From a virus (Duplodnaviria; Caudoviricetes), in the IMG/VR virus record IMGVR_UViG_3300023105_003457, positions 1 to 64,000 of that record: a DNA stretch of 64,000 nt, one strand, 5' to 3'. Below, piece by piece: positions 33,231 to 51,995 of the stretch (within the stretch, counting starts at the first letter, position 1; each line of letters starts with the position of its first letter). The position numbers and the translations under genes were made by a program. The notes beneath the pieces were generated by a model. The model was given only the letters and a program-made list of their open reading frames with translations, was not told the DNA's origin and ran no database searches.

Positions 33231-33544
33231 GATTGTTTTCCTTATAGTATAACGATACTCTTAGTTATAACACATTTCAGGCTCAGGGAAACGAATTTGG
33301 TAAAGCGTAGCACAACTACTAGGTAGACGTGTTGTTATAGTGCATATCCAACCCCCATCCATGCTACCATCATGATCTAGATCATAACTTAATGGAGGAA
33401 ACTGACTGCCCGTTAACTGCTTACAGTACTTCCAACGCTCACTAGAGTTTGCCCATTCACCCACGTGTAGTCGTACGGCAAGTTCGGGATCCTCTACATC
33501 AGCAACACCAAAACAGTACAGTGTGATCTCAGTCATAGGCCCTA

Positions 33545-33606
33545 CAAGCACGAAGTGCGGTCCGCGAAATTTTACGGCCTATAGCCGCGAAGCGGTAGCG
33601 GTAGCG
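33545..33606 (+). repeat. GAA-triloop hairpin element, left copy
   Basis: GCAC-GAA-GTGC, GTCCGCG, AAATTTT, CCGC-GAA-GCGG, TAGCGGTAG; imperfect inverted copy at 46705-46756. Confidence 0.7.
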
Positions 33607-34019
33607 ATTTATAGTATGTTCTCCTCTAACAAGCCAAAACAGTCCAATCCTACGTAGGCTAGAAAGAGTAGTGCGACCCATATGATGAACACTCTCCATA
33701 ACAGACTATACCATTTCACGCTAGTACTCCTAGTACACACGCAACGCACACAATCACAATCCACAGGATGCTGGACCTTATACACCTAAAGAAATCAAGC
33801 ACCTTGACTCTCTTTCCACAATCGCTTTAGATAATAACGGTTAGCACGAAAGTAATCCTTTTGACCAAAGTACTTGCATTTTATCTTGTACCATGCACAC
33901 TCGTCACGATGCTCATAGTATTTGTCATTTACGAACTGACGAAATTGACTGTTTTTCATTTGACTGCTCCTGTTGTTCTAACGGTGTATCTACTGTCTCT
34001 GGAGGCGACTCTAAGTGCA

Positions 34020-34460
34020 TACTATACAGTAGTAAACACATAAACAGATACGTGCATAATACATATAGTATAGCAAGAAACAGTTCTAACATAACACTAT
34101 ACAGTATACACTATAACAGTGCATAGTCAATACTGTGATTAGCCAAAGTGAACTTACAGTATAGGAGTCAACAGAGTTGACTCGTACTTCGTACACTATA
34201 CACTATACAGTAAGACCCCGCTGTAAGGATATATAGACCCCGCTGTAAGGATTGTGCTCGTATGCGTGTAGGAGTATTTTTTGGTTATCTCTCGTCGCCA
34301 TAACCATTTCCGGTAAAATCACCCTTATCAACCACCGTAAATCCACGATTATGAACCGTAATACCACTTTTACCAGTTTTACCACTATTACCACCCCACC
34401 GTAGACCACCGTAAGAACATGGTTTTTCACCCTAGATCCACAATGGCCCCTTCGGGGCCC
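34020..34460. repeat. low-coding repeat/hairpin-rich segment
   Basis: ACTATACAGT x3, AGACCCCGCTGTAAGGAT x2 (~34213, ~34234), GAGTCAAC-aga-GTTGACTC, GGCCCC-ttc-GGGGCC, ACCAC/ACCGTA runs. Confidence 0.6.
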
Positions 34461-34597
34461 CACTCTGCTCACTATGCTTACTACTCTCATATAGTGTGTA
34501 TAGGTCTTTGAGCGGATCCTACTGTATATACACTATAGGGGTTGACAATACTGCATATGATGCTATACTGTATAGTATGTTAAGAAAGGCTGAATCA

Positions 34598-34831
34598 ATG
34601 ACCATCAATAGGCTTCTATCAATATCAATACTATCAATATCAATACTGGCATCAACAGGCTGTTCATCAATAACTGATCAACGAGGGCGGGATGTCAATA
34701 GTCAATGGCTTTATCAAGGGGCCTATCAATGGAGGGGTGTCAATGATGCTCCGGATTATGGGGCGAGGTTGCCGAACAATGTGGGAGATTATGACAGATT
34801 TTGCAGAGAGAGGCCGTGGAAGTGTCGCTAG
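34598..34831 (+). CDS. putative lipoprotein
   Basis: MTINRLLSISILSISILASTGC lipobox; downstream of promoter 34542. Confidence 0.5.
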   Translation: MTINRLLSISILSISILASTGCSSITDQRGRDVNSQWLYQGAYQWRGVNDAPDYGARLPNNVGDYDRFCRERPWKCR

Positions 34832-35214
34832 ACCAAAAACTCTAATAGAATCAAAGACTTATCCTGTTTGAACAGAGGAGGGGCTGTGTCTGACGTGGTC
34901 GTTCGTTCGTTCGCGTTCTTTTCCGAAAAAACCGGTTGACAAGAGTTGATTTGATGCTATACTATATGTATAGTGAGAGATCTGGCCGGCCCCGCGTAGA
35001 AATTGCAGGCATCGGCAGTGTATTGGACTCCGGTATCTGGCTTTCGCTTAACGTTCCCGGCGGTGGAGTTTTTTGGCTTACCCCTCGCTCTCTTATTGTT
35101 CTTATAGTATAACAAATAAAACCGGTTTTGTCAACCACTTTTTTGCAAATAAAATAGTTGACAATTTGGATATAGGTGCTATACTGTGTATAGTTAAAAA
35201 GAGGAGCGAAAACT

Positions 35215-35352
35215 ATGTATGTACTACACGTTTTAAATGACGCAGGCGAATGGGAATTTATTACACGCAAATTCCGCACACCGTTTAATGCTGTTAAATT
35301 TTTCCACAGCAAATTGTCTATGTTTGCAGATTACACTATAACAAAAATTTAA
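35215..35352 (+). CDS. early small protein (45 aa, not in ORF track)
   Basis: promoter plus GAGGAGCGA RBS; MYVLHVLNDAGEWEFITRKFRTP... Confidence 0.6.
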   Translation: MYVLHVLNDAGEWEFITRKFRTPFNAVKFFHSKLSMFADYTITKI

Positions 35353-35435
35353 AAAAAATGTGCATTTTGGACTTGACAAGTGTGTAAAAGAGCATATAAT
35401 AGTATATGTAAGTTAACAAAAGCGAGAGGTAAATT

Positions 35436-35909
35436 ATGCAAAAATTACAAAACTTTTTAAAAACACTAAAAGCAAACTGCAACAACATTGCACACATTAG
35501 CGATGAGGGCAACACAGCACAGGTGACTATTAGTTTAGGTACAGGCTGGGCTGGTGACTATGCAGGTGGTTATTGGGGTGACTGTGCTATTACAGACGAC
35601 GAACTGCAAATTACATTTACAGTAGGCGACGTATACGACGATGGGGACTTTACTATAGGTGAAGGCATTGTGCAATTAACATACAAAGGCGGTGTTGAGA
35701 ACAACGGACTTGCTTACACGGGCGAACTTGATAAAGAGGTGGGCAACGTGCTACAACACGTGACAGGTGGTATGTTATATTGTAGCGGTAGCGAACAGGG
35801 TATGCAGGGGCACTACGACGAAGACGAAAGTTATTTGAGCGTAGATATGGAGATTGTGGATAACACAAAACAAAAGGCAGTTGTTGCGAACGTTGTTAGT
35901 ATAGGTTAA
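35436..35909 (+). CDS. early hypothetical protein
   Basis: own promoter, GAGGT SD; acidic, SEQGMQG motif. Confidence 0.7.
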   Translation: MQKLQNFLKTLKANCNNIAHISDEGNTAQVTISLGTGWAGDYAGGYWGDCAITDDELQITFTVGDVYDDGDFTIGEGIVQLTYKGGVENNGLAYTGELDKEVGNVLQHVTGGMLYCSGSEQGMQGHYDEDESYLSVDMEIVDNTKQKAVVANVVSIG

Positions 35910-35978
35910 ACAAATTGGTTGACAGTATAGCATTTCGGTGCTATACTGTATATACAGTTTAAAAAATAAGGAGCGAAT

Positions 35979-36350
35979 ATGACATTTTACGTTTATCACA
36001 AAACAGATTCACGCATTGAGACTGGTAAGGGCAATACGCATTACGGTCAGCACGAATACAACACAGAGGGTCAAGCAAAAGCGGCGATCACTCGTATTGT
36101 AAAGAAGGCTCAAGCAAAGCACGATCGTCTAAAGGCAAGCAAATACAGTTGGGATAATGAAAGAGCACAAGAGGCTCTAGATCGTGTGGCGGATCTTGCT
36201 ATTGCTGAGCATGATGATTATCACGCTAATATTGAACAGTTCGAAACAGTTTATTCAATCTTTGATAGTAAAAAAGAGAAACCTGTAGTACAGAGCGTGA
36301 ACACACCTCATTTTATGAGTGTATCAAGCGAAAGTTATTGGTGTATGTAA
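35979..36350 (+). CDS. early hypothetical protein
   Basis: promoter plus AAGGAGCGA; C-terminal NTP.FMS.SSESYWCM. Confidence 0.75.
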   Translation: MTFYVYHKTDSRIETGKGNTHYGQHEYNTEGQAKAAITRIVKKAQAKHDRLKASKYSWDNERAQEALDRVADLAIAEHDDYHANIEQFETVYSIFDSKKEKPVVQSVNTPHFMSVSSESYWCM

Positions 36351-36527
36351 ATGAAGACTCTAGTCGAAACAACGGTTTGGGGTGACAATACCCCAAATCA
36401 TACCTACTTCTTAGAGAACGATCGCTGTGTAGGCTACATCAAAGCAGGCACAAGCGAGAAGATTATGTTCAAAAAGCCTATGCGTTTTGATAAAAGACGT
36501 AGAACTTTTAAGGAAATTAGGGGTTGA
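36351..36527 (+). CDS. early small protein (58 aa, not in ORF track)
   Basis: MKTLVETTVWGDNTPNHTY...FDKRRRTF; stop TGA lies inside next TTGACA. Confidence 0.6.
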   Translation: MKTLVETTVWGDNTPNHTYFLENDRCVGYIKAGTSEKIMFKKPMRFDKRRRTFKEIRG

Positions 36528-36575
36528 CAAAACCGGTAATGCCGTATATAATATAAAAATAATGAAAGGAATGGT

Positions 36576-36821
36576 ATGGAAAAACTCAACTCAATAGTAT
36601 TAGCGATCACTGTAGGCATTGTGGCTTACTTGTTCGTTGAAGTGCAGGACTTGAAAGAGACAGATTCATTCTTCACCGAGTCTCAACCGGTGGTGACATC
36701 ATGTGGTGAGAAACCGGATATGGTGGTGAGAGATGTATTTGCTGAATTCAAAAATCTAGTCATCGAACTTAAGAAGTTGGAAGACGAAACCTTGCCCGAC
36801 GTTAAATTGGAGGACAAATGA
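36576..36821 (+). CDS. early single-TM protein
   Basis: promoter, AAGGA SD, N-terminal TM. Confidence 0.65.
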   Translation: MEKLNSIVLAITVGIVAYLFVEVQDLKETDSFFTESQPVVTSCGEKPDMVVRDVFAEFKNLVIELKKLEDETLPDVKLEDK

Positions 36822-36999
36822 GAATTCTAATTGGTATTGCAATTGGTGTCTTTGGAACTTTATTCTATGTGGATCCCTCGATGATCGATCCACTGTTGAC
36901 CCAAGCCCAAGAAGTAGTTAGAGCAATTGGACAATTTCTGGTTGACAAAACCGGTTAATCCAGTTATAATATAGTTATTGTTTAATTAAGGAGCGACCT

Positions 37000-37278
37000 A
37001 TGGAAAACAAGACTTATATCTTTCACACTGATCCCGGACACGGCTGGTTGGCTGTTCCGTTCAAAGATCTTATCGCATTCAACATCACAGATAAGATCTC
37101 AGGCTATTCATACATCAAAGGCAAGACTGCATACCTCGAAGAAGATTGTGATGCAGGAGTGTTCATTGATGCATTCAAACAACGCTTTGGTAAGATGTTT
37201 GAATACCGTACATCATATCAAGAGCGTACACAGATTCGCTATTTCGAAAACTATACAGCAGACAAGGTGGCGGCGTAA
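37000..37278 (+). CDS. early hypothetical protein
   Basis: DPGHGWLAV...YLEEDCD motif; AAGGAGCGA; ends KVAA. Confidence 0.75.
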   Translation: MENKTYIFHTDPGHGWLAVPFKDLIAFNITDKISGYSYIKGKTAYLEEDCDAGVFIDAFKQRFGKMFEYRTSYQERTQIRYFENYTADKVAA

Positions 37279-37525
37279 TGTTTAAACTATATTGGAAAGG
37301 TGAGTGTATTGATCAGTTCGATACACTCGATGAGGCTCAAAAGATGCAAGCCGAATACAATATGGCATATGGTGGAGGAGTCATTATAGACGATGGCTCT
37401 AACGATGCTGAGTATGAACTAGCAATGGCTGAGTTTCACGGTAGTTGATCACTGAAAAATAATGGTTGACAATACCGGTTTTGTCTGTTATAATTATTAT
37501 ATAATTTAACAATAAGGAGCGATAT

Positions 37526-37795
37526 ATGAAACTATCAACAATCATTGCAGAGATCCACTCTATGAACAGAGACGATCTTAACAAGGTAGTCGAGGCTGTG
37601 AAGTATGCGAGATCGCAGGCACACAGACAAGCGGCGAACTCACTCAAGGCAGGTGACACAGTATTCTTCGACGGTAGGTATGGTAAGACCGTTAAGGGCA
37701 CGGTGATCAAGACTGCCATCAAGTATGTACAGGTTGACTGTGGCATAGATGGTCGTTGGAGAGTACCGGCGGCACATTTGAGGTTGGCGGCATAA
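37526..37795 (+). CDS. early SH3-like protein
   Basis: LKAGDTV.F...G.V.K...K...V......WRVPA..L; ends RLAA. Confidence 0.75.
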   Translation: MKLSTIIAEIHSMNRDDLNKVVEAVKYARSQAHRQAANSLKAGDTVFFDGRYGKTVKGTVIKTAIKYVQVDCGIDGRWRVPAAHLRLAA

Positions 37796-38001
37796 TGTTA
37801 AACGTATTGAAGTGGGTGGCTACGGCCACCCTAATCATCGGCTTTGGTTTGATGAGTTCCGGCAACACAGATGGCTGGTACTTACAGATCACCGGTGGTA
37901 TCCTATGGTTGATTGCGGCTGTGATGATGAAGGACAAACCCCTCATTGCCACAAATGCAACCATGACAATCGTAGGGATAATAGGCAGACTTTTCGGTTG
38001 A
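37795..38001 (+). CDS. small membrane protein
   Basis: LKWVAT...G..LW..AA....DKPLI.TN; TAATG coupling. Confidence 0.7.
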   Translation: MLNVLKWVATATLIIGFGLMSSGNTDGWYLQITGGILWLIAAVMMKDKPLIATNATMTIVGIIGRLFG

Positions 38002-38058
38002 CAAAACCGGTTTTGTCTGTTATAATGTAATTACAAAATAAAAAAATAGGAGCGAGAT

Positions 38059-38238
38059 ATGTCAGATAATTTTAAAGAAAACGTATTCGAATTTTTAGAC
38101 GACTTACGTGAGAGCGGCGCTGTTAATATGTTTGGCGCAGGACAATTTGTACAAGAAGCATTCGACGTTGATAGACGTGAAGCAAGAACGCTGGTAGGAG
38201 AGTGGATGGACACTTTCTCTGAGAGGCACTCTGTATGA
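38059..38238 (+). CDS. early small protein (59 aa, not in ORF track)
   Basis: FLDDLRESGAVNMFGA motif common in phage early proteins; AGGAGCGA RBS. Confidence 0.65.
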   Translation: MSDNFKENVFEFLDDLRESGAVNMFGAGQFVQEAFDVDRREARTLVGEWMDTFSERHSV

Positions 38239-38735
38239 AGAAGGTTGGTTTAGACTTCTTCTTTAATAGAGAAGATGATTGGGGAGCCAACTACAACAAC
38301 ATGGACTTCTATATGTACAATGTCCAAAGGCTTAGATGGCTTTTGGTCGATGCGGACTACCTAGAAGGCAACCCATTTGCTAAATGCGTGGACCTAGACA
38401 CATTAGAGATCAAGGACCAAGCAAGGTTCCAAAGCCTGCAGGAGAGGGATCACGATGCCCTAGTTGAAATGGTCGAGGACAAAGGTTGGGATTGGTTAGG
38501 CGATGACTTTGATCACATGGAAGCCTATCTATCCTTTATCATGCAACATGATAGAGCATTCTGTTATAGTGTAAAGGGTGAAGGATACAAATGCGACAGC
38601 GATTACCTACACATCGAGACTTGGAGCATACCAGAGAAGTTCCTCGAGAGTGATGCTCTGCGTGATGCCTACATTGCTGGATCCTCTAATGAAAGTGGCG
38701 ACTACCATATGGATTCCGAGAGTCACGGCTGGTAA
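38235..38735 (+). CDS. early acidic hypothetical protein
   Basis: ATGA overlap; 166 aa. Confidence 0.7.
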   Translation: MKKVGLDFFFNREDDWGANYNNMDFYMYNVQRLRWLLVDADYLEGNPFAKCVDLDTLEIKDQARFQSLQERDHDALVEMVEDKGWDWLGDDFDHMEAYLSFIMQHDRAFCYSVKGEGYKCDSDYLHIETWSIPEKFLESDALRDAYIAGSSNESGDYHMDSESHGW

Positions 38736-38795
38736 TTTTTTGGTTGACAACTGGTAAAACCGGTGCTATACTGTAAGCATAATAAGGAGAGCGAA

Positions 38796-38990
38796 ATGAA
38801 ACAATTGAAAACATATTTGGGATTCTTTTTTATCGTAGCAGGAATCATTATGATGGCTGGCTCAGCAGGCGACTGTGATGGTGCTTGTATGGAGAACGCT
38901 AATACGATAGGCGAGATGCTAATGATTGCATTCATTGGTCTATGCTTGTTTGGCACAGGCGCATTCATAGCCATTTCAAGTGAAAAATAA
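38796..38990 (+). CDS. small two-TM protein
   Basis: promoter, AAGGAG SD; GSAGDCDGAC loop. Confidence 0.65.
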   Translation: MKQLKTYLGFFFIVAGIIMMAGSAGDCDGACMENANTIGEMLMIAFIGLCLFGTGAFIAISSEK

Positions 38991-39054
38991 TGGTTGACAA
39001 TACCGGTAATTCCGTGTATACTGTATATATAAATTGAAACAAAAGGAGCGATAA

Positions 39055-39567
39055 ATGGCTACAAGAGCACGAATTGGTCTACAGCAAGACAACGGCACAA
39101 TCATTGCCGCATATCAACATTGGGATGGTTATCCGGGTGGCTTAGGTTATACCCTATGCGAACACTGGGAAGATCCTGCAAAGGTAGAAGAAGGCATCCG
39201 ACTAGGCGATGCTTCTAATTGGAAATACATCGTAGGCACGAAGGTAGACTTCGACGATAGGAATGATCCTATGCACGATGTCCAAAATGTCTACTACGGC
39301 AGAGACAGAGGCGAAAAGAATGTAGGCTTCCGTACTTACAAAGACGAAGCAGAGTTCATTGCTGAAGGCTTTAACACAGGTGAAGAATACATTTACCTAA
39401 TGAAGAACACAGGTAAGAAGGATTACTTAGGCAAAGCAATAGGCGAATGGTTCTATTGTGCATACGACAAAAAGTTCTTTATCGAACTAGAGGAGGTTGC
39501 TATTAACGAGCATATCGAAATGCTCAAGCGACACCTAGAGTTGATGAAGCAACAGAAGGCGGCGTAA
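39055..39567 (+). CDS. early hypothetical protein
   Basis: MATRARIG...YQHWDGYP..LG..L motif; ends QKAA. Confidence 0.75.
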   Translation: MATRARIGLQQDNGTIIAAYQHWDGYPGGLGYTLCEHWEDPAKVEEGIRLGDASNWKYIVGTKVDFDDRNDPMHDVQNVYYGRDRGEKNVGFRTYKDEAEFIAEGFNTGEEYIYLMKNTGKKDYLGKAIGEWFYCAYDKKFFIELEEVAINEHIEMLKRHLELMKQQKAA

Positions 39568-39636
39568 ACCGAAATTATCAGCAAAGGCTTCGGGGTATAG
39601 TTAAATAATAGCACACTATACCCCGGAGGATAACAA

Positions 39637-39984
39637 ATGACAACAGAGTTTCAACATCAGCGAATTCAAGTGCCAACAGGCATTGAAACAAATGAAAACG
39701 GTATCGTTGAGGCTGTGTGGGAAAGTCGTTTGGTGACCAGTTTGGAAGAATTGAAACAGGCCAATGCTGATATTAAGGCATTCCAGGAAAAGCATGGCGC
39801 TCGTAAGTTCAAGAACGCTACGAAGATCTTGGATAAGTTTGGATTGTCTGTAAAGGTGGCGAACACTGATCTTCCAGATGTGAAAGAACACAAACGGAAT
39901 CACCCGCACACCAAACCAAGAGCATTCATGGGCCCGAACTATGTTCCGGAAGACACTCATGATAATCATTTGGACAAGAAGTAA
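39637..39984 (+). CDS. hypothetical protein, probably late-expressed
   Basis: GGAGG SD partly inside an upstream hairpin whose loop holds TAAATA. Confidence 0.65.
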   Translation: MTTEFQHQRIQVPTGIETNENGIVEAVWESRLVTSLEELKQANADIKAFQEKHGARKFKNATKILDKFGLSVKVANTDLPDVKEHKRNHPHTKPRAFMGPNYVPEDTHDNHLDKK

Positions 39985-40088
39985 TTTTGGACAAAGTTTT
40001 TGGTTGACAGATTGGCCAAACTGTGCTATTATATAATCACAATGAGAGATCATTGTATTTTTAATAACTCAAAATAGGAAAGGCAGTT

Positions 40089-40388
40089 ATGACAAACAAG
40101 ACGTTCAAATATGCAGGTGTATCAACCAGCAATGGCAAAACTAAAATTAGGTTTGCAAACGATATCATGAGAATCAAAGTTCTGGATAAGAATGGTCACG
40201 AAGGCGTGAACATCAAAGAACTTCCTACAGAGATGTTGAAAGGTGATGCTGTTAAGCACTTATCTTCAATCGGATTTGCAGGCGAAGATTCAAACATCAA
40301 AGCGGCTCTAGATAAAGCGGCTAAGAAGTATGGTGTAAGTCTTACACAACCTGCAGTTGAAACAGAATCAACTGTAAATGTTGCGTAA
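40089..40388 (+). CDS. hypothetical protein
   Basis: F.YAGVS...G..KIRFAND..R.KVL.K.GH motif; own promoter. Confidence 0.7.
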   Translation: MTNKTFKYAGVSTSNGKTKIRFANDIMRIKVLDKNGHEGVNIKELPTEMLKGDAVKHLSSIGFAGEDSNIKAALDKAAKKYGVSLTQPAVETESTVNVA

Positions 40389-40605
40389 TTACATCACAGC
40401 ACTTGTGGTAGTGGGGGCATTGATTGTCCCCACCCACGCTTATTCATTTGATTTGCTCACTGTAATTAAGAGGGCAATTCAAATCAATAACATCAACAAC
40501 AACCTCGATCGGTTGAACCTCCCACAGGAACTAGAAAAGATAGCCATAAAAACTGTGGAAAATTATCCTAAGCAAAGAGAAAGAAATAAGGTTGACAATA
40601 GGTAA
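40378..40605 (+). CDS. exported small protein
   Basis: signal peptide ending AYS. Confidence 0.55.
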   Translation: MLRNYITALVVVGALIVPTHAYSFDLLTVIKRAIQINNINNNLDRLNLPQELEKIAIKTVENYPKQRERNKVDNR

Positions 40606-40654
40606 AACCGGTGCTATAATATAAGAACAATTAAACAAAGCAAAGGAGCGAGCG

Positions 40655-41257
40655 ATGCCAAATTGGTGCAACAACACAATCAGGCTAACAGGGCCTAAAG
40701 AAAAGATCAAATCAATATTCGACAAAGCAAAAGAGTCGAATCAATTTCTACAACAACTACATCCTATGCCTGCAGAACTAGAAGGCACAACTTCACCAGC
40801 GCCTAAAGACGGAGAGCCACAACCGTTGGTAGATGGACACGACAACTGGTATGACTGGAGAGTTGACAACTGGGCAACCAAGTGGGATGTTGATATGGAC
40901 GGATTGGAACTTGTGGAGAACGATGACTCCGCAACCATCCAGGGTTGGTTCGATAGTGCATGGTCACCACCAACAGGTGCTTACGGGTATTTCCTAGCAA
41001 AGAATGAGGATTGCAGTATTCACTCTTACTTCTACGAAGGTGGTATGGACTTTGCAGGTGAATGGGATGACGGTTGTGATACAACGATCAATCCTAGCGA
41101 GTATAACGCGGACCAGATGGAAGATCCTAACGCTGGACTCATCTATGAACTCAACGAACACTTTGGTTTCTCGGATTGGGTGCGTGAGTATGAAGAAGAA
41201 CAGAAAACAGATACAGAGAAGTTCATTGTAGACAAGGAGCCAGTCAATGTCGGATAA
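40655..41257 (+). CDS. DUF1281/YubB ferredoxin-like domain protein
   Basis: MPNWCNN, WYDWR..NW.TKW, FDSAWSPP, YEGGMDFAG. Confidence 0.8.
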   Translation: MPNWCNNTIRLTGPKEKIKSIFDKAKESNQFLQQLHPMPAELEGTTSPAPKDGEPQPLVDGHDNWYDWRVDNWATKWDVDMDGLELVENDDSATIQGWFDSAWSPPTGAYGYFLAKNEDCSIHSYFYEGGMDFAGEWDDGCDTTINPSEYNADQMEDPNAGLIYELNEHFGFSDWVREYEEEQKTDTEKFIVDKEPVNVG

Positions 41258-41645
41258 CCTACCTAAGGATTTCAAAGACATGGAAGATGACGCAATCGTT
41301 GGAGAGGACAGTCGTTCTCTCCAACTGACCCACTATGTGTTGGCTGAGCGTTTGATGCAATGTGAATACGCTATCATCGCCAAAGAGATCGTAGAGCAAC
41401 CATGCAGTGACACGCTCATCTATATCTTAGAAGGCGGCCTCCGAGGCTACCACAAATGCACAGCAGGTGAACTGTGGAGTGAATGGAAGGATGGTGCCGA
41501 GGACAAGTGGTACGAGATGTATGAAGATGGCACCCTGCCATGGGAGGTCTTCGAAGACGATCCTATTCTCTCACTAGAAGAAGATGAGAATGGTGAAGTT
41601 GCAACCTACGGTAAGCGTTTGACTGATGCTTTTGGGCACGAATAA
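41247..41645 (+). CDS. acidic hypothetical protein
   Basis: AAGGAG SD; coupled. Confidence 0.65.
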   Translation: MSDNLPKDFKDMEDDAIVGEDSRSLQLTHYVLAERLMQCEYAIIAKEIVEQPCSDTLIYILEGGLRGYHKCTAGELWSEWKDGAEDKWYEMYEDGTLPWEVFEDDPILSLEEDENGEVATYGKRLTDAFGHE

Positions 41646-41870
41646 AAACGGTTGACAAAACCGGTATTGTCTGTTATACTGTAAGTATAAACAATAAAGA
41701 AAGCGAGGCAATATGAAGTTTGAATTTGATTACAGCAAAATGTCGGACGAAGAAGTAGTGATGACATATAACGCAGTGATGGCTAACGCTTACTTAGGTG
41801 ACGAATGTGCGTTAGAAGATGAAATGGAAAAGCGTGGCTTAGACGCAGACAGTTTTAGCGGAGAGTACTA

Positions 41871-42086
41871 ATGGCGACGAATTTGGAAAGCAGAACACAG
41901 GGTGTAGCATTGACACGCTTTTGGGGCGGTGCAGAACGCGGAACCTGTGTGCAAGTTAATGCTCGAAAATGGCAAGGTCATGTGCAGTTGACACGCGAAC
42001 AAGCGGCTGAATTGGCACATGATTTGATGGCTTTTGCTGACGGTTTGGAAACTGAAGAGTGGTGCAGAGGCGCAGAAAAATATTAA
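41871..42086 (+). CDS. hypothetical protein
   Basis: TRFWGG..RG.CVQ motif; GGAG SD. Confidence 0.65.
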   Translation: MATNLESRTQGVALTRFWGGAERGTCVQVNARKWQGHVQLTREQAAELAHDLMAFADGLETEEWCRGAEKY

Positions 42087-42165
42087 AAAAAGTTGAAAAA
42101 AATGGTTGACATTTTGGACAGCGATGCTATACTATATGTATAGTAAGAAATAAGGAGCGAACAAT

Positions 42166-42501
42166 ATGAACACTTTTATCGTCACTACACAGGGTTTAGA
42201 AAACTACGGCGCACACGCAGAGAGCGGTAAGTTCTCCGATGGGCAGAACTATTGGAAGTTCAAGTCGGGCACTGACTACATGGTCACTGGCCTCGAGCGT
42301 CCTGCGGATGCTATGGCGTTCGTTGCCGCAATTGGCATCGAGAACGGCATTGGTTGGAAAGAGTTCCCAAGCCATGTGCAGACTCTTGAGGACTTCGAGA
42401 GTGAGTTCGATATGACCGATGAGTTCGATAAAGAGCACTTCGAGTTCAAGATGAAGTATATGCAGAAGGTCGACCCTCGAACCTACAAGAAGGCAGCCTA
42501 A
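42166..42501 (+). CDS. early hypothetical protein
   Basis: TQ.LENYGAH...YWKFK.G motif; ends KKAA. Confidence 0.75.
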   Translation: MNTFIVTTQGLENYGAHAESGKFSDGQNYWKFKSGTDYMVTGLERPADAMAFVAAIGIENGIGWKEFPSHVQTLEDFESEFDMTDEFDKEHFEFKMKYMQKVDPRTYKKAA

Positions 42502-42719
42502 TGGAGTATCGTGGATACACCTACGTGGAGGACCTGCAGGAGGAGGATGACAACCGTAAGATCTTCCACGAGATCGAGAGAGAGGATGGCTCCCGTGTTG
42601 AGTGGAGTCGAATCCCTCAGGAGTTCATCCAAATATCTCCATATCGATCAGCAACACGCGAAGAGTTCGAACGTGCTGTGGACCATGTATTTTTTATGGA
42701 TTTAACGGTTGACAAGTAA
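42501..42719 (+). CDS. hypothetical protein
   Basis: TAATG coupling; EEDDNRKIFH. Confidence 0.65.
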   Translation: MEYRGYTYVEDLQEEDDNRKIFHEIEREDGSRVEWSRIPQEFIQISPYRSATREEFERAVDHVFFMDLTVDK

Positions 42720-42760
42720 GCATAAGATGCTATACTATATAGATAATGAAGGAGCGAACA

Positions 42761-42991
42761 ATGTTAAAATTAGCGTATTGCGATAAGATTGCTGACAGCA
42801 TTCAAAAGGCTTTAAAGCAAACTGATCCGGATGGTATAATTAAAGAAGTGAGCAAGATCGAATGGGACTTGCATCCAACAGAGGGTTATTTCATTTCACC
42901 TAAGAAAATGATGACTGTGCATGACATGAACGGTAAGGCTTATGTTGTCACAATTGAAGAAGCACCAGTGCTTGATAAGGAGACGTTGTAA
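42761..42991 (+). CDS. early hypothetical protein
   Basis: promoter plus AAGGAGCGA RBS. Confidence 0.65.
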   Translation: MLKLAYCDKIADSIQKALKQTDPDGIIKEVSKIEWDLHPTEGYFISPKKMMTVHDMNGKAYVVTIEEAPVLDKETL

Positions 42992-43200
42992 TGATTGATC
43001 CGTTTGAAAAGGTAAAGACGTTCGAAGACCTGATTGATGAAATCGAACAGAACGATACTTCAGATGATGTGTTCTCTGATATGGACAGCATTGAAGAAAT
43101 GCAGGACGAAGAATTTGGAGAATTTTCAGGCGTCGAAGGTATTGACAATTACGACGACTGGAATTAAAATAATAATATAAACTGTTAACAAGGAGCGAAA

Positions 43201-44241
43201 ATGAAAACAGCACTAATTCAATTTAATGAGGGTACGTACAAGATCCGAGGCAACGACATGAGTGTGTCAGGTCTTAAGTTTCCTCTAATCCAACATTTCA
43301 AAGATGGCAAGAACGGCGCCTACGTCACAGTTGACGGCGCGGCACAGCCAGGCTTTCCAGAGCGTAGTATACGTATCAAAGTAGAGAGCCCACAGAGTTA
43401 TGAAATCGTTGACAGCAACTTTGATCAGGTCAAGCAGGATGCATTAAAAGCAAGTGTCAAGGACACAGAAACTGATGAGCAGATCATGGAACGTATTGGT
43501 AAACGTTTTGAAATTCTAGACGAGATGACTCGTGCCAGTAAGGAAGGTAATGTACGTGCAATGATCGTAAGTGGCCCTCCAGGAGTTGGTAAGTCATACG
43601 GTGTTGAACAGCAACTTGAAAAGGATTCACTGTTTGATGATGTATCAGGACACAAGAGACGATATGAGATCGTTAAGGGTGCAATGTCAGCAATTGGACT
43701 CTATGCTAAGTTGTTCAAGTACAGCGATCCAAAGAACGTAGTTGTGTTTGATGACTGTGACTCGATCCTACTAGATGACATCAGTCTGAACATTCTTAAG
43801 GCCGCACTGGACACTAGTAAGAAACGATACATTAGTTGGAACACTGATTCGCGTTTACTGCGTTCAGAAGGTATTCCAGATCGTTTTGAATTCAAAGGTT
43901 CAGCGATCTTTATTACAAACATCAAGTTTGAAAACGTGCGATCCAAGAAACTTAAAGATCACTTGGAAGCACTTGAATCACGTTGTCATTATGTTGACCT
44001 AACAATTGACACAGAACGTGAGAAGATGTTGCGTATCAAGCAGATTGTGCGTGACGGTATGCTCGAAGAGTATGATATGCCTCAAGAGCGTAAAGACGAC
44101 GTGGTAGAGTTCATTGATGAGAACAGAACTCGACTACGTGAATTGAGTTTGCGAACAGTACTTAAATGTGCTGACCTCGCTAAAAGTTTCCCTTCAAATT
44201 GGAGGGATTACGCGGCGACCACTGTGTTAAGAGCCTCTTAA
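43201..44241 (+). CDS. AAA+ family ATPase
   Basis: Walker A GPPGVGKS, Walker B VVVFDDCD, FITN, ALESR arginine finger. Confidence 0.85.
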   Translation: MKTALIQFNEGTYKIRGNDMSVSGLKFPLIQHFKDGKNGAYVTVDGAAQPGFPERSIRIKVESPQSYEIVDSNFDQVKQDALKASVKDTETDEQIMERIGKRFEILDEMTRASKEGNVRAMIVSGPPGVGKSYGVEQQLEKDSLFDDVSGHKRRYEIVKGAMSAIGLYAKLFKYSDPKNVVVFDDCDSILLDDISLNILKAALDTSKKRYISWNTDSRLLRSEGIPDRFEFKGSAIFITNIKFENVRSKKLKDHLEALESRCHYVDLTIDTEREKMLRIKQIVRDGMLEEYDMPQERKDDVVEFIDENRTRLRELSLRTVLKCADLAKSFPSNWRDYAATTVLRAS

Positions 44242-44281
44242 TCTCTTACCCTCGCTCAAAGGGGCTCAGTCGCGTTAACTT

Positions 44282-44325
44282 AGGGCAGTACTGGAATTCG
44301 CTCCTCTGGTACTGCCCTTCCTTTT
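44282..44325 (+). terminator. terminator-like hairpin with anti-RBS loop
   Basis: AGGGCAGTAC/GTACTGCCCT stem then TCCTTTT; loop region carries TTCGCTCCT. Confidence 0.65.
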
Positions 44326-44425
44326 GGCCACAAAATCAGTGACAAATTAATTGGAAAAACCGGTTGACAAACATCCAAAGTGAGCCTATAATATATGTAT
44401 AAGTTAAACAAAAGGAGCGAAACTT

Positions 44426-44767
44426 ATGACACAGGTAGCAGTAATTCATTCAGCATTTTCGGACAAGCACAATCCACACGTGGTAGCATTTGTAGAGGCT
44501 GGTGAGCGTACGGGCACTGAAGCATTGGAGTACGCATATCGCGTGACACAGAACATTGAGGGTTCATGGAGCAAGGGTCCTACATTTGAATGGGAAGGTG
44601 AAACACACACCAACCCAGACTTCAACCCAGACATCACAGTAATGGTTCCACTTACACTTACTCCGGAAGGCAAGGAGTACGGATTGCGTTCAACTTCAAT
44701 GGGCGACCAGATGCTGTTGGGCACAGACAAATATGAAGTAGCCGCATTTGGCTTTGACAAACTATAA
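44426..44767 (+). CDS. early hypothetical protein
   Basis: LEYAYR.TQNI.GSWS...GLRSTSMGD; promoter plus AAGGAGCGA. Confidence 0.75.
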   Translation: MTQVAVIHSAFSDKHNPHVVAFVEAGERTGTEALEYAYRVTQNIEGSWSKGPTFEWEGETHTNPDFNPDITVMVPLTLTPEGKEYGLRSTSMGDQMLLGTDKYEVAAFGFDKL

Positions 44768-44776
44768 GGAGCGAAC

Positions 44777-45046
44777 GTGAAATTATCCAAAAAGAAACTA
44801 TTCAAAGCACTGGATCTATTCTTCAACACTGAAGCATATAGCACAGATGGATTGAATGCAAAGGGCATTGGTGATGAGACCTACGGTCGAGACAGTCGTA
44901 TATACGTAGACACTAAAGGCAAACGAGGCGAATTGGAACGCTTCTTGCGTGGCTTAGGCTTTACTGTCAACACCAATTACAGCAAGGGCAGTGACTTCAC
45001 AGAAGTCTGTGTATCCTATTTCAAGGGCCGACACTGGGACGAATAA
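44777..45046 (+). CDS. early hypothetical protein
   Basis: AAGGAGCGA-GTG start. Confidence 0.65.
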   Translation: MKLSKKKLFKALDLFFNTEAYSTDGLNAKGIGDETYGRDSRIYVDTKGKRGELERFLRGLGFTVNTNYSKGSDFTEVCVSYFKGRHWDE

Positions 45047-45111
45047 GGGGTTGACACAAACCCAAAGTGACTGTATTATATACTTACAAACTACAAAACA
45101 AGGAGCGATAT

Positions 45112-45519
45112 ATGTTAAATTCAGCAACAGGTACAATGGCAACAGTAGCACAAGACATCAAGCAGTATACAGCAGATGACATACGTGCTATCAAAGCAGA
45201 AGCAGTAAGCGAAGCAAAGAAAGCAGTAGCCAAGTTCCTAGCAGAGTGGACAGAGAGCACAGGTGGCAATGAGTATGGTGAGCCTATGTATTGTGGCTTT
45301 GCTTGGACTAACATCTACAACATCAAAGGCAATACTCGACTAGGTAAAGCATTCAAAGCCGCTGGCATTGAAAAGGATTACAGTGGTGCGTATAGCATTT
45401 GGGATCCTGCAGAGCACAGAGGACAGAGCATGGATGCTAAAGAAGTAGGTGCACAGGCTTGTGCAGATGTGTTCCGCAAGTATGGCTTTACTGCGTATAT
45501 GGGTAGCAGAGCAGACTAA
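45112..45519 (+). CDS. early hypothetical protein
   Basis: CGFAW...QS.D.KE.GA.A.A.V...G.....SR.D motif; last gene of island. Confidence 0.75.
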   Translation: MLNSATGTMATVAQDIKQYTADDIRAIKAEAVSEAKKAVAKFLAEWTESTGGNEYGEPMYCGFAWTNIYNIKGNTRLGKAFKAAGIEKDYSGAYSIWDPAEHRGQSMDAKEVGAQACADVFRKYGFTAYMGSRAD

Positions 45520-45547
45520 TCGCAAACGGTTCGCGAACGTTTGGAAA

Positions 45548-45577
45548 TGAGCGGCAGAGATGTCGCTCATTTTTTTT
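45548..45577 (+). terminator. intrinsic terminator ending early island
   Basis: TGAGCGGCA-gaga-TGTCGCTCA followed by T8. Confidence 0.75.
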
Positions 45578-46006
45578 GGCTGAAGAATCTTTTTTGAAAA
45601 TAAAAAAGGCGAGGGGCTTTATATATAAAACCATGGTGATGCAGAATCACCAGGCAGGAGAAAAAATGAAATTTAAAAAAATTGTAGCAGAAAATTTTAC
45701 ATACTATATACCCCTCTCTAAACAAGGTATTTGAATCGTTTGTATAACTAGTATTTTGGAATGCGTAAACAGTGTACATACTATCCAAAACTTCCTCTAA
45801 CACAGTATCTACTGCGTACAGGCGCTATATTACCTCTTAAACAGTCTCGGGCAGTCAAACATACTCGTAAGGCTAGTAAGACCCGTGTATGACGCTTATA
45901 TAGCGTTTAAGACACCACTACGCACACACTGTAAAAGCAACCACCCCCCTGTAGAGTAGTGTATTCAAATTTTTTTTGCACAGATTTTTTTTGATTAACT
46001 ATACGT

Positions 46007-46252
46007 ATGGCTGAAGAATACTGCATATACACAAGAGACTTTGATCAAGCACAAGGCTTTATAACAGCACTAAGCAACATGGGTATTAGCATAGAACCAC
46101 ACGCTAATCGTACACGTTTTTGGCTAGACTCAAAAGAGAAAGAACACTACTTGTTTTATCTGCGTTATAGTCACGTGCTACACCGTGTAAAGGAAGTCAC
46201 TGCAAGTACTATAACTGCTATACACGAAAATACTGTTAAATTCAAAGGTTAG
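46007..46252 (+). CDS. hypothetical protein
   Basis: 81-aa ORF, EPHANRTRFW. Confidence 0.55.
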   Translation: MAEEYCIYTRDFDQAQGFITALSNMGISIEPHANRTRFWLDSKEKEHYLFYLRYSHVLHRVKEVTASTITAIHENTVKFKG

Positions 46253-46643
46253 GTGTGTGTACAGCGTATGTTATAAAGTCACGCACAGTGTATATATAAC
46301 GTTCCAAATCAACAAACAGATCCCTATTGTATAGTCGTTCAGTTGTTAAACGACTGTAGGCCATACGTCCAATCTCTGTCTTGTAGTTGCGTTGTGCTAC
46401 ACCTGGATATACACCTGTAAGCCAAAGAGCACTGTCACCCAACAGTTTAGCACCTGTACTGCCTTCCATTTCCATTATGCTTTCTGCATAGGTTTTGCGT
46501 GGTTGGAGGCCGTCTGTCATGCGTTCTGCTAGGATCATTACAGTGTATGCTTTAAGGTGATATGGCAGTGTTAAACCTGTACGATTTTCCGTGTCTTGCA
46601 CGAGATTGGTGAAAGCATCGATGTAGTGTGCATCGGTTCCCAT
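46242..46643 (-). CDS. hypothetical protein
   Basis: 133 aa; LGD.AL.LTGVYP; CATAAATA upstream. Confidence 0.65.
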   Translation of the reverse strand: MGTDAHYIDAFTNLVQDTENRTGLTLPYHLKAYTVMILAERMTDGLQPRKTYAESIMEMEGSTGAKLLGDSALWLTGVYPGVAQRNYKTEIGRMAYSRLTTERLYNRDLFVDLERYIYTVRDFITYAVHTPNL

Positions 46644-46704
46644 AACAGTATTTATGGTGGGAGTAAAACTTTTGACCGCTAACCGCTACGCGGATTGCGT
46701 TGCT

Positions 46705-46756
46705 CTACCGCTACTGCTTCGCAGTCTAGAAAAAATTTCCGCGGACGCTTCGCTTG
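46705..46756 (-). repeat. GAA-triloop hairpin element, right (inverted) copy
   Basis: minus strand CAAGCGAAGC-GTCCGCG-GAAATTTT...CTGC-GAA-GCAG-TAGCGGTAG. Confidence 0.7.
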
Positions 46757-47011
46757 TTTTTGGCTGTTTTGAGCCTATTTCACGGTGTATATGCTTCAGT
46801 GTTTTAAATACTTGTACGAGTTGTTTATTTGAGAGATCAACACACACTCAGTATGTACGTTGCGGTGACACCGTTAAATAGAATTAGGTTGTATAAAACT
46901 TCAATAAACAACTCGATCTACATACACTAGGCTAAATACAGTCTATAAGTTAAACAGTCTGTTTACTATACACCCGCACTAGATTAAATAATTATATAGG
47001 AGGGTGTTATT

Positions 47012-49817: not shown

Positions 49818-50576
49818 ATGGCTAATAGAAAGCACTACGATCTAAAACAAATGGTAGCATCAGGCTACTCATCAGATCACACATTCAATCACAAGTTTGG
49901 TGCTGTACCGCAGTTAAGCATCAACACCACAGGCACAATCTGGGACGTATCTAACACACTGTATCCTTGGACGGCATTGGACACACCAGCAGTAGTAAAT
50001 GTAGAACGCAACGATGCCGCAGATAACGGATTGGTTGTCACAGTACAAGGATTAGATGCCGACTGGAACTTCCAAAGCGAAGACATCACAATCACAGGTG
50101 CAGACCAAGTAGGCACCAAACTATGGCGTAGGGTGAATAGAGCCTACGTCAGTTCAGGCACAGCCGTAGTGAACGTAGGCAACATTGACATCGAAGCAGG
50201 AGCCGCAGGCGGCACCACAGTTGCTCGTATCACAGCCGACCTTGGACAGACACTGATGGCTGTCTATACTATACCAGCAGGATACATTGGATACTTGTAT
50301 CACGGAACTATGACTGTACAGGCCAACGCAGATGCCACAGGCTTTATGTTTATTCGCAGAAACACAGTAGGCACAACCTTCCGTGTTGCTCATACCTTTG
50401 AAGTTGCTGGCGGATCACAGTATATGTACGATTTTGCTTTTCCGCCACCAATACCAGAGAAAAGCGATATTGATGTAAGAGCCACAGTTAGAAGTAATAA
50501 TGCTAGGGTCACAGCCGCTTTTGATATCTTGCTTGTCGAGAACGATCCAGAAGCACCAATTACTGATTTAATCTGA
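49818..50576 (+). CDS. hypothetical beta-rich protein, possibly structural
   Basis: KFG...TIWD...QGLD..W...MAVYTIPAG...IPEKSDI. Confidence 0.65.
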   Translation: MANRKHYDLKQMVASGYSSDHTFNHKFGAVPQLSINTTGTIWDVSNTLYPWTALDTPAVVNVERNDAADNGLVVTVQGLDADWNFQSEDITITGADQVGTKLWRRVNRAYVSSGTAVVNVGNIDIEAGAAGGTTVARITADLGQTLMAVYTIPAGYIGYLYHGTMTVQANADATGFMFIRRNTVGTTFRVAHTFEVAGGSQYMYDFAFPPPIPEKSDIDVRATVRSNNARVTAAFDILLVENDPEAPITDLI

Positions 50577-51995
50577 TTCAGTATTAATTGATTTAATAAG
50601 ATCTCTAAGTTTAGTTGATTGTGTTTTACCACTAACTTTACCTACTGTTGATCCTTCTGTTGGATCACTTCTAGTAGTTTCTTCACTGTTATCAACTGTA
50701 CTTTGTTTTTTGATGTTATTGTATATTGAAGAGCCTGTACTTGTATATGTTGATGATTGCGAATCTTCTTCTGCAAGATCACTAATACGTAAAGTATCAA
50801 TATTAAAATCTAAATCTACTTTTTGTCCTACACCACTTGAACTACGTGTTTTCATAAACTGTATTTGATAACGTCCACGTTCTTTCATTGCTCGTGATGT
50901 AAAGATACCAATCACGTTATCAGCAGTTTGAATCTTACTCAAACCACCTGAGATATGCGAATGATCAAATTCAATTTCTTCAACAGCCGCTCTGTTTAAC
51001 TGCGATGCTGTCACAAATACTGTTTGTGTTTCCATTGCTAAGTTTCTTAGTTCTTCAGATACATACTTGTCTTTAATAAACAAGTCACTCGGTGAAACTT
51101 TTCTACTCATAGGCATCAACAAGTCTAAGTAATCAATTAGTAATACATCTGCTTGTACACCGTTTTTAATTTGCCACTCTTTAACATAAGAACGTAAGTC
51201 ATTTGCAGTCTTACCACTTGGCATATATTTGATTTGAATCTTTCCTGCTTTCTTACCTTGCACTTTAACTTTCATTTCAACATCGTCAATATTTTTAAAT
51301 ATGTCACGTGTTGCCATTCCTGTTAACATTGCATCAACACGCATTGCTACAAGTTCTTCACTAAGTTCTAATGATATGTACAATACGTTCATGCCGTCAA
51401 GTGCAAAGTTAACAGCCATATTTTGTAGGAACAACGATTTACCTGCACCTGAACCACCTGCCCAAATGTTTAGTTCACCTCTGTTGAATCCACCAAACAA
51501 CTTCTTATCTAAACTTGGCCATCCTGTGCTTACTTGTCCGTTGTTGTCTTTTAGTTTCATTAGTCTTGCTCTTGGGTCTAAGAAATAATCAGTACCCATG
51601 TCTTTTGCAAGACCAATTTGGATTGCGTCTTTAATTAAACCTTCTACTGGACCATACTCACCTTTTTCAAGTAAGTCAGCACTTTGTAAAATTGCACGTT
51701 CAAGTGCTTTCTTTCTACTAAACTTTTCAAATGTATCTAATAGCCAATCGTGATGCTCTTCTCCAACATTACTTGCATCTTGTAAACCAACACCACAACT
51801 TTTGTTAACAATATCAAGTTCAGGCATAACTTTATATTCATCAACATATGTTTTAATAAATGTTGCTGTGTCTTTTAGTTTTTGGTCAAAGTTATCTGGA
51901 TCAAATATTCCTTGACAACGCACATAACTTTCTGCATTGCTTAGAAACATTTCTAAAAACAGTTTTTGTATATCTTCTTTAAATTCTTCAGCCAC
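50568..51995 (-). CDS. replicative DNA helicase (DnaB / T4 gp41-like)
   Basis: STGW..LD..L.GG, GGSGAGKS, SLELSE, IDYLDL, TASQLNR, KTRSS. Confidence 0.93.
   Translation of the reverse strand: MAEEFKEDIQKLFLEMFLSNAESYVRCQGIFDPDNFDQKLKDTATFIKTYVDEYKVMPELDIVNKSCGVGLQDASNVGEEHHDWLLDTFEKFSRKKALERAILQSADLLEKGEYGPVEGLIKDAIQIGLAKDMGTDYFLDPRARLMKLKDNNGQVSTGWPSLDKKLFGGFNRGELNIWAGGSGAGKSLFLQNMAVNFALDGMNVLYISLELSEELVAMRVDAMLTGMATRDIFKNIDDVEMKVKVQGKKAGKIQIKYMPSGKTANDLRSYVKEWQIKNGVQADVLLIDYLDLLMPMSRKVSPSDLFIKDKYVSEELRNLAMETQTVFVTASQLNRAAVEEIEFDHSHISGGLSKIQTADNVIGIFTSRAMKERGRYQIQFMKTRSSSGVGQKVDLDFNIDTLRISDLAEEDSQSSTYTSTGSSIYNNIKKQSTVDNSEETTRSDPTEGSTVGKVSGKTQSTKLRDLIKSINTESD

Follow-up and report, generated by a model that had tools for sequence, protein, structure and literature searches.

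What marks the borders of the block of small genes that occupies the middle of a stretch of uncultured virus DNA, and is such a mark read on DNA or on RNA? The window analysed here (64,000 nucleotides) comprises the first 64 kb of the 116,336-bp virus contig IMGVR_UViG_3300023105_003457, which is designated G000 in the genome comparisons. An initial annotation of this DNA had proposed that a 13-kb early island is bracketed by two inverted elements of about 60 bp built from mini-hairpins with GAA triloops. These elements, here termed A and B, represent a single conserved and strand-specific element, present as one copy at each border of the island in a clade of uncultured jumbo myoviruses, which are distant kin of the Pseudomonas phage PA5oct. 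Such an element appears not to have been described before, as far as the literature found by us is concerned.

Anatomy of elements A and B and covariation of their stems

The unit of the element is composed of a mini-hairpin closed as d(C-GAA-G), with a stem of four Watson-Crick pairs and in rare cases a GTA loop, a GC-rich AGCGG(T)A-like box, and an A-run or T-run. In the window, the two copies are organized as follows.

33545..33606 (+), element A, established by sequence read-out, profile match and an ortholog in the related contig G002 (locus L097) at the equivalent position
33548-33558 (+), hairpin GCAC-GAA-GTGC of A
33560-33566 (+), block GTCCGCG of A
33567-33573 (+), block AAATTTT of A
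33585-33595 (+), main hairpin CCGC-GAA-GCGG of A
33595-33606 (+), block GTAGCGGTAGCG of A
46670..46756 (-), element B, established by sequence read-out and profile match, with orthologs in G001, L091 and G002
46747-46753 (-), mini-hairpin GC-GAA-GC of B
46740-46746 (-), block GTCCGCG of B, with an A/T run after it
46713-46725 (-), hairpin ACTGC-GAA-GCAGT of B
46705-46714 (-), block GTAGCGGTAG of B
46683-46693 (-), third hairpin CCGC-GTA-GCGG of B
46675-46688 (-), two additional TAGCGGT boxes of B

The blocks CAAGC, GAAG, GTCCGCG, AAATTTT and GCGAAGC(G/A)GTAGCGGTAG, which had been reported to follow each other in the same order in A and B, were recovered in this order both by read-out and by alignment. 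The additional minus-strand hairpins listed at 34184-34194, 34445-34459 and 46683-46693 are likewise all found in the sequence; the one at 34445-34459, near the left edge of the island, is GGCCCC-TTC-GGGGCC with a stem of 6 bp. Element B reaches to about position 46670 and hence beyond the limit of 46705 originally assigned to it. Element A is located between two minus-strand open reading frames (ORFs) and is antisense to each, and the start codon (33536) of a 91-aa ORF lies 9 nt away from it. The ORFs that overlap A (33529-33699, minus strand) and B (46654-46881, plus strand) were rejected as genes, as their translations are arginine-rich nonsense. Since, in addition, the frames differ across the common blocks, A and B are not coding.

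Twenty-six distinct copies of the element were aligned on the first hairpin (alignment A3). All 26 have a GAA loop closed by a CG pair. The pair following the closing pair is GC in 24 copies and AU in two, the third stem pair is CG in 22, GC in one, UA in one and another combination in two, and the outer pair is GC in nine, AU in six, CG in six and another combination in five; a fifth pair is unpaired in 23 of the 26 copies. Double-sided changes were counted in 17 cells of the alignment and one-sided (wobble) changes in none, with G-U pairs absent from all 104 stem cells. The covariation score of 0.295 compares with a mean of 0.108 for shuffled alignments, none of 500 shuffles reaching the observed value, and with at most 0.117 for slid controls. 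RNAalifold predicted this 4-bp helix and no other. The two main hairpins CCGC-GAA-GCGG and (A)CTGC-GAA-GCAG(T), which had been pointed out as a compensatory pair, can be read in the sequence, and they represent one case of a general rule, since the stems covary across the 26 copies; far from being lost in homologs, the covariation grows when relatives are included. The second and third hairpins of the element range from a bare 2-bp GC-GNA-GC to 6 bp, with GAA or GTA as loop (GCTAC-GAA-GTAGC and TGCTGC-GAA-GCAGCA are longer examples), and GCGAAGC or GCGTAGC is found in nearly all copies.

The similarity of A and B to each other is less telling. Their gapless core comprises 18 nt with one mismatch (E 0.054), and the gapped match covers 46 columns with 78% identity (30.1-31.1 bits), A and B being reciprocal best non-self matches. 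Comparison of the genome with itself yielded 180 matches of at least 30 bits, and because each of 10 composition-matched shuffles yielded 39-54 such matches, the pairwise similarity alone lies within chance. The folding energies of the single-stranded DNA are ordinary in comparison with shuffles (z-scores of +0.10, +0.31, -0.93 and -0.52), as calculated with the DNA parameters of ViennaRNA, which may carry no special term for d(GCGNAGC). Beyond chance are the clustering of the hairpins (11 GC-rich C-GNA-G hairpins occur in the 116-kb contig, four of them inside A and B), the position of A and B as the only profile copies, and the recurrence and stem covariation of the element in relatives.

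Occurrence, polarity and pairing in related genomes

Copies of the element were searched with nhmmer profiles and strict hairpin scans. The 18-mer GCGAAGCRGTAGCGGTAG is present in 13 viral contigs, nine of which have the whole architecture in common (hairpin, (T)CAGCGGCAG-like box, AAATTTTTT, second hairpin, TAGCGGTAGC); the other four are unrelated G+C-rich matches, a figure near the number estimated for chance. A profile built from six distinct sequences and applied to loci fetched by the helicase protein gave additional copies in other helicase loci. By synteny, L092/L093 (contig G001) and L091 carry orthologs of B and L097 (contig G002) carries the ortholog of A. The helicases of the element-bearing contigs share only 61-83% protein identity. 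The position and strand of the B-type elements are given relative to the following gene.

50568..51995 (-), gene of a DnaB-like replicative helicase

A strict unit was defined by three features, namely a C-GAA-G hairpin of at least 3 bp, a GCG no more than 14 nt away, and a T or A/T run no more than 40 nt away. Scanning of 80 helicase loci (1.055 Mb) revealed 29 such units in 25 loci, and 28 of the 29 are located on the strand of the helicase gene, 0.5-8.4 kb downstream of it, in a zone that accounts for about 18% of the strand length covered by the scan. Profile searches detected no copy besides A and B in the present contig and no further copies in G001, G002, G003 and the complete 364-kb genome G006. 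The motif is therefore not scattered through the genome without relation to the island, which the initial annotation had named as the finding that would speak against it, and the strict scan of the helicase loci agrees with this. The ORFs flanking the element, as predicted by a crude ORF caller, are arranged as (-,-) in eight, (+,-) in seven, (+,+) in seven and (-,+) in three of the 25 loci. That the strand of the element is fixed relative to the helicase gene and the island, and not to the neighbouring genes, favours a strand-specific signal at the level of DNA, and the antisense position of A to both neighbours together with the variable flanking ORFs argues against any promoter, terminator or leader that belongs to a particular gene.

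A scan of metagenomes with the 18-mer retrieved at least 119 stretches, of which 80 were listed. The profile matched metagenome stretches in 66 rows at E <= 1e-3; among those listed, the whole architecture is present only in L197 and L214, and the remaining rows match the 18-mer region only, in G+C-rich DNA. L091 is the sole true element at which a contig ends exactly, and in 15 of the 25 element-bearing helicase loci the contig stops 0.4-4.4 kb past the B-type element. When 50,697 phage records were searched at the DNA level for near and distant matches, neither the A region nor B retrieved any, and no cultured phage carrying the element was found among the phage records searched. A single pattern match in PA5oct at 267692 was treated as chance, and in Vibrio phage 2.275.O the helicase gene is followed by co-directional genes without an island. 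Rfam showed no match at A or B up to E 1, nor any there at the gathering score in a search of the whole window.

The second major feature of the element is its occurrence as an inverted pair around the island.

34542..45079 (+), island of small ORFs with 19 promoters and raised GC content

Minus-strand genes extend from position 1 to about 33,960 and are followed by small plus-strand ORFs from 34.5 to 46.25 kb. The 19 plus-strand promoters are of the sigma70 type and agree with TTGACA-N16-18-TATAAT/TATACT in 11-12 of 12 positions, and the GC content is about 42% in the island compared to about 35% outside. Of 32 island ORFs scanned with Pfam, 31 showed no family. These near-consensus promoters and the lack of Pfam families are the basis for the terms "early" and "host-takeover", and "early island" appears a reasonable designation as judged from these sequence features.

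Inverted pairs of the element surround a promoter-rich island in G000 (13.2 kb apart), G002 (12.5 kb) and G010 (16.1 kb), and a weak candidate bracket is present in G006 (14.6 kb). In G002, whose helicase is 79% identical, a B-type copy at 17,411-17,462 (+) and an A-type copy at 29,990-29,930 (-) enclose 15 of 18 strong minus-strand promoters, and one more is located just beyond B. In G010 (helicase 66% identical), a B-type copy at 64,379 (+) and an inverted copy at 80,458 (-) enclose 23 of 24 strong minus-strand promoters; an additional B-like copy lies at 66.3 kb. Contig G001 stops at the start of the island, short of the A side. The complete genome G006 carries a clear B-type copy at 4450 (-) and, as candidate for the A side, CTGC-GTA-GCAG at 354,383 (+). 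Since the last 126 nt of this 364-kb contig are identical to positions 46-171 of its start (L087, L112), the genome closes on itself inside the island. An inverted copy makes up the first 77 nt of G006 and has the appearance of an artefact of assembly.

In all four genomes (G000, G002, G010 and G006), the GAA strands point 5'->3' into the island, and the orientation of the island relative to its flanks is equal in G000, G001, G002 and G010. The two copies of one genome also have spacer motifs in common: GTCCGCG occurs three times in G000, two of these in A and B, AGCGGTAGCG exactly twice in G002, once per element, and CGCGCAAAAA three times in 37.5 kb of G010, both elements included. Such genome-specific spacers suggest one reader for both sites or, alternatively, gene conversion. 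The original claim that paired structured signals delimit the island is consequently upheld by the brackets of G002 and G010 and the weak candidate of G006, its early or host-takeover character being a prediction from sequence. Anatomy, conservation, covariation, polarity and bracketing of the element are direct observations.

Possible functions of the bracketing element

The element carries a motif with known physical properties. According to the portion of PMC13037366 that deals with them, DNA mini-hairpins as studied by Hirao and co-workers are extraordinarily stable as DNA and much less so in their RNA versions, bind the single-strand-binding protein (SSB) poorly and occur at the primase origin of phage G4, in ssiA of RSF1010 and in the promoters of the N4 virion polymerase, the N4 hairpins having a 5-bp stem. 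The core of the present element is identical to d(GCGNAGC) in having two G-C pairs that close a GNA triloop. The known motif was defined physically on oligonucleotides, whereas here it is part of a conserved genomic element of 40-90 nt which is recognized from sequence alone and has, besides the core, a stem of 4 bp as well as an AGCGG box and an A/T run. A DNA mini-hairpin is in keeping with the invariant GAA loop, with closure by a C-G pair, with stems made up of Watson-Crick pairs only and with the bare GC-GNA-GC hairpins, and we infer from this that the element acts at the level of DNA.

Tentatively, and with confidence that stays on the cautious side, we favour the view that the element is a single-strand initiation or processing signal of the kind known from G4 and from the ssi sites of RSF1010, possibly linked to a terminal repeat. 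When the hairpin-bearing strand becomes single-stranded, a very stable, SSB-resistant mini-hairpin would form, and the folded hairpin would make the adjacent box and A/T tract accessible to an enzyme of the phage by which the strand is started or cut at this site. This enzyme could be a primase or a nicking or processing enzyme; the choice of enzyme and process is speculative. Because the two copies are located on opposite strands and point 5'->3' into the island, synthesis would proceed outward from both borders if the hairpin strands served as templates, and a nick on the hairpin strands would provide a 3'-OH that is extended inward across the island. Such an arrangement would be suited to replication that starts from the island and proceeds in both directions, or to a duplication by which the island becomes a long terminal repeat. 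In support of priming, a candidate primase is encoded along with the DnaB-like helicase on the B side.

55415..56419 (-), candidate primase ORF (Toprim_2 domain), part of the replication module adjoining the B side

In RSF1010, two single-strand initiation signals are located on opposite strands, with ssiA and ssiB side by side in one origin that adjoins iterons; the cognate primases are RepB' for RSF1010 and DnaG for G4. These mini-hairpin signals are read on single-stranded DNA, as is proposed here. The elements share with them the conservation of the hairpin by pairing, as evident from covariation and RNAalifold, and the placement on opposite strands. They do not form a compact origin next to iterons and, unlike the ssi signals of RSF1010, flank a transcription-dense block of genes.

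Several points weigh against an initiation or processing signal. The copies lie 12-16 kb apart and not next to each other as ssiA and ssiB do, and a RepB'-type primase (PF16793) was not found in G006, G000 and G010 in a search that had no positive control. The 4-bp stem is shorter than the 5-bp stem of N4 promoter hairpins, and the missing wobble pairs in so short a stem are weak evidence for DNA over RNA. The A-side hairpin of G006 is one of 14 such hairpins in 364 kb, so that its position would arise by chance with an estimated probability of about 0.04, and it escapes the unit profile. As outward early transcription is symmetric about the island too, the polarity is also compatible with a role in transcription. 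Finally, in the assembled contigs of four public metagenome runs, from which the data on depth and joints were taken, contigs that bridge A (depth 13.7, 16.4 and 15.7) or B (15.7, 18.4, 13 and 7.9) match pure-flank contigs (13.5, 21.5, 16.8 and 8.2), so contig depth lends no support to a step in copy number right at A or B. Contigs from the interior of the island are 1.3-1.9 times deeper, an excess that sets in about 1.35 kb inward of A and about 0.8 kb inward of B. Co-occurring strains with common island modules can equally account for it and are a likely cause, as promoter repeats are connected by many alternative joints. The cumulative GC skew of the complete genome G006 tracks gene orientation and does not single out the elements.

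It is unlikely, though to be taken seriously, that the elements form a boundary of transcription. They would stop, pause or insulate outward transcription by the host RNA polymerase, or act as RNA hairpins in processing or stability, and would thus separate the early genes from later modules. Two predicted sites are relevant for this possibility.

34103..34130 (-), outward sigma70-like promoter TTGACT-16-TATACT, 10 of 12 positions
45549..45577 (+), site resembling an intrinsic terminator, GAGCG-(10 nt)-CGCTC, A, T8, read from sequence

The outward promoter is predicted to drive the short minus-strand ORFs at 33959-33609 that precede A, and an outward consensus promoter with one to three small ORFs is also present at the A-side edge in G002, G010 and G006. 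Together with the plus-strand promoters directed towards B, transcription is thus predicted to leave the island both ways, a layout common to G000, G002, G010 and G006, so that A and B meet outward polymerases in equal relative orientation. A separates the short outward operon from larger genes, B is located past the last island gene, and the first hairpin of B, when read on the plus strand, is followed by TTGTTTTTGG and was flagged as terminator-like. In the outward transcripts, however, the hairpins would have UUC loops on stems of 2-4 bp and would rarely be followed by a U-run, and in the sense orientation the T-run begins 8-20 nt past the stem. A canonical terminator, the site at 45549-45577, already closes the island; it directly follows the last promoter-driven ORF (45067-45519), 1.1 kb before B. 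Moreover, the folding energies are no better than those of shuffles, there is no Rfam match, and the invariant GAA loop, which is specially stable in DNA and not in RNA, would be left unexplained. The narrower candidate of an intrinsic terminator was rejected in view of the 2-5-bp stems and of T-runs that stand 8-20 nt off in the sense orientation and are mostly absent in the antisense orientation; only the first hairpin of B was flagged.

Somewhat less probable, and in our opinion doubtful, is the proposal that the island as a whole is the long terminal repeat of these jumbo phages, with the inverted mini-hairpin elements as the cis signals that create it. Long terminal repeats with early genes are known from T5 and SPO1. 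In PA5oct, the early genes lie within a 39-kb terminal repeat (relevant section of PMC7318152; also record annotation), and in Twort-like phages (Kayvirus) inverted repeats flank the long terminal repeats, the repeat of phage K holding early genes (passages of PMC7596081 and PMC11598898). As far as these sources go (PMC7596081, PMC11598898, PMC7318152), such phages have a short inverted repeat pair bordering an early-gene block of about 8-40 kb, and a pair is found here as well, at the borders of the early block in G000, G002 and G010 and as a candidate in G006. The border repeats of the Twort-like phages are plain 12-mers in the parts of PMC7596081 and PMC11598898 concerned, whereas the elements described here are covarying hairpins; the depth of the assembled contigs shows no step at A or B. 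To form the repeat, a phage enzyme that recognises the extruded or exposed hairpin together with the AGCGG box would introduce a nick at the A/T run of the hairpin strand at each border. The staggered nicks on opposite strands would then allow displacement synthesis from two 3'-OH ends, which would copy the island inward, and each packaged genome would receive the early genes at both ends. A repeat-border motif of PA5oct, TTCGGTGAA, appeared enriched by eye, but genome-wide it occurs at control frequency (41+23 versus 30+21) and was discarded.

Improbable in our view is a function of the elements as protein-bridged or recombination borders, in which a phage protein binds the AGCGG(T)A boxes and palindromes and loops or silences the island, or in which the borders anchor the exchange of a hypervariable early cassette between co-infecting relatives. 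The genome-specific spacer motifs common to the two copies and the recurrence of AGCGGTA-like boxes within the elements agree with such a role, as do the hypervariability of the island, the many contig joints that link promoter repeats in the four metagenomes, and the contig ends shortly past the B-type element in 15 of 25 loci. The interior of the island also resembles the promoter/stem-loop (PeSL) shuffling cassettes that have reportedly been described in T4-type phages, whose hyperplastic regions similarly hold many small ORFs with strong early promoters and recombining promoter repeats. Unlike PeSL cassettes, A and B contain no promoter, occur once per border and not between all ORFs, and are oriented by the frame of the genome. 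The free covariation of the stems points to selection for pairing and not for a fixed protein-binding sequence. The Pfam scan of the 32 island ORFs showed no family of recombinases, transposases or invertases, and the orientation of the island to its flanks is constant in G000, G001, G002 and G010. Contigs of the four runs bridge A and B without rearrangement, and among the 15 of 37 joints listed, none starts or ends at A or B and none changes strand, so that the inversion or excision at A and B suggested earlier as a test has found no counterpart among these joints. The ends of a transposon or invertible segment were rejected as a candidate, given the lack of such a Pfam family in the 32 ORFs, the equal orientation in four genomes and the absence of a flanking target duplication on reading the sequence around A and B.

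Very improbable is a class of N4-type hairpin promoters, in which the template-strand hairpin recruits a single-subunit RNA polymerase of the phage and transcription proceeds outward from both borders. The GNA triloop with its C-G closing pair lies on what would be the template strand of outward genes, as in the promoters of the N4 virion RNA polymerase. The stem differs, comprising 4 bp and not the 5 bp of N4, with the fifth pair unpaired in nearly all copies as described above, and the island genes have ordinary sigma70 promoters. The distance to the next outward gene varies (9 nt at A and about 250 nt at B), and local genes are often not oriented outward. The corresponding polymerase family (PF00940) was not found in the complete genome G006, in G000 and in G010, in a search that had no positive control and in which control genomes were also silent; the RNA polymerase of N4 is very divergent. 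In the relevant text of PMC13037366, N4 promoters are hairpins with a 3-base GGA or GAA loop, and PA5oct needs the RNA polymerase of its host according to the part of PMC7318152 concerned. That the element has no function, being a chance similarity of GC-rich intergenic hairpins or a decaying remnant of a small mobile repeat, is hardly credible: the pairwise similarity of A and B within chance and the unremarkable folding energies would allow it, but position, strand and covariation are conserved across contigs with helicases of 61-83% protein identity, and profile searches show only two copies per genome.

Genome setting and implications

The large proteins of the contig are myovirus-like and include a tail sheath protein, large terminase, UvsX-like recombinase, SSB, DnaB-like helicase and ATP-dependent ligase. 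The closest cultured kin is the group of the Pseudomonas jumbo phage PA5oct (protein identity of 56% for the terminase and 52% for the helicase). The record is classified in IMG/VR as a provirus, with a CheckV completeness of 32%. Kin contigs span 33-364 kb and are rated 9-100% complete, from which genomes of about 350 kb can be estimated. Auxiliary-metabolism or modification functions are represented by a sizeable set of genes, namely three ORFs similar to tryptophan halogenases, one radical-SAM ORF and two carbamoyltransferase-like ORFs (3528-4805, 17691-19268, 19261-20829, 14139-15209 and 52008-52991 in the window and 109288-111105 in the contig), and these genes may be the reason for the provirus label.

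The island promoters (34.5-45.1 kb) form the strongest repeat family of the genome, and some have a hairpin with TTGACA in its loop, e.g. at 37994-38010 and 41649-41663. Metagenome contigs link different promoter copies (e.g. 34974->42289 and 35950->40655) in a pattern like that of PeSL shuffling. Where promoters diverge at the island's left edge, the 18-nt sequence AGACCCCGCTGTAAGGAT is directly repeated with a spacing of 4 nt (34213-34252), and a run of ACGGTGG- or TACGGT-like repeats extends over 34300-34420, with the 6-bp hairpin at 34445-34459 beside them; these repeats could be operator or iteron-like sites. Past the terminator-like site, about 430 nt at 45580-46006 are free of ORFs and contain the hairpin TGGTGATGCAGAATCACCA as well as long A and T runs, and the contigs of all four metagenome runs break at 45884-45887. 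A further joint, 31295->47731, which skips 16.4 kb, is present in contigs of all four runs at a depth of 23-36, above that of the flanks of the strain; its shorter side comprises 44 nt, and no repeat explaining it was found within this genome.

Next to B, the following gene was predicted.

46242..46643 (-), 133-aa ORF of no known family, directly 3' of B on the strand of B

Homologs of this ORF follow the element in G001 and L072 and occur at other places in L087, L074 and L077. A motif like that of T4-type late promoters, TATAAATA, lies downstream of some B-type copies; it occurs only six times in the 116-kb contig. Directly 5' of B, a non-coding block at 46800-46915 (-) is strongly conserved between G000 and G001 and holds an 11-bp inverted repeat, GAGTTGTTTAT ... 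ATAAACAACTC, with arms about 70 nt apart. A glutamine riboswitch aptamer (RF01739) was detected at 47716-47763 (+) with 50.1 bits at a gathering score of 35, directly 5' of a 64-aa ORF (47788-47982) that is kept in relatives.

Uncultured jumbo phages are known almost only as contigs. The element is recognisable from sequence alone and marks both borders of the early module across the clade, so it can be used to delimit this module and to orient contigs, and it indicates where to look for signals of replication or end formation. It also provides a natural, evolutionarily validated case of GNA mini-hairpin DNA, with covariation in 26 copies, and extends the short list of such signals formed by the G4 origin, RSF1010 ssiA and the N4 promoters. 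If the elements were indeed to create the long terminal repeat, they would represent the first case in which a sequence signal for the formation of terminal repeats is defined in a jumbo phage, and GNA mini-hairpin DNA would have gained a new use in biology. If the element is a priming or nicking signal, it would offer a handle on how the genomes of giant phages are started or cut.

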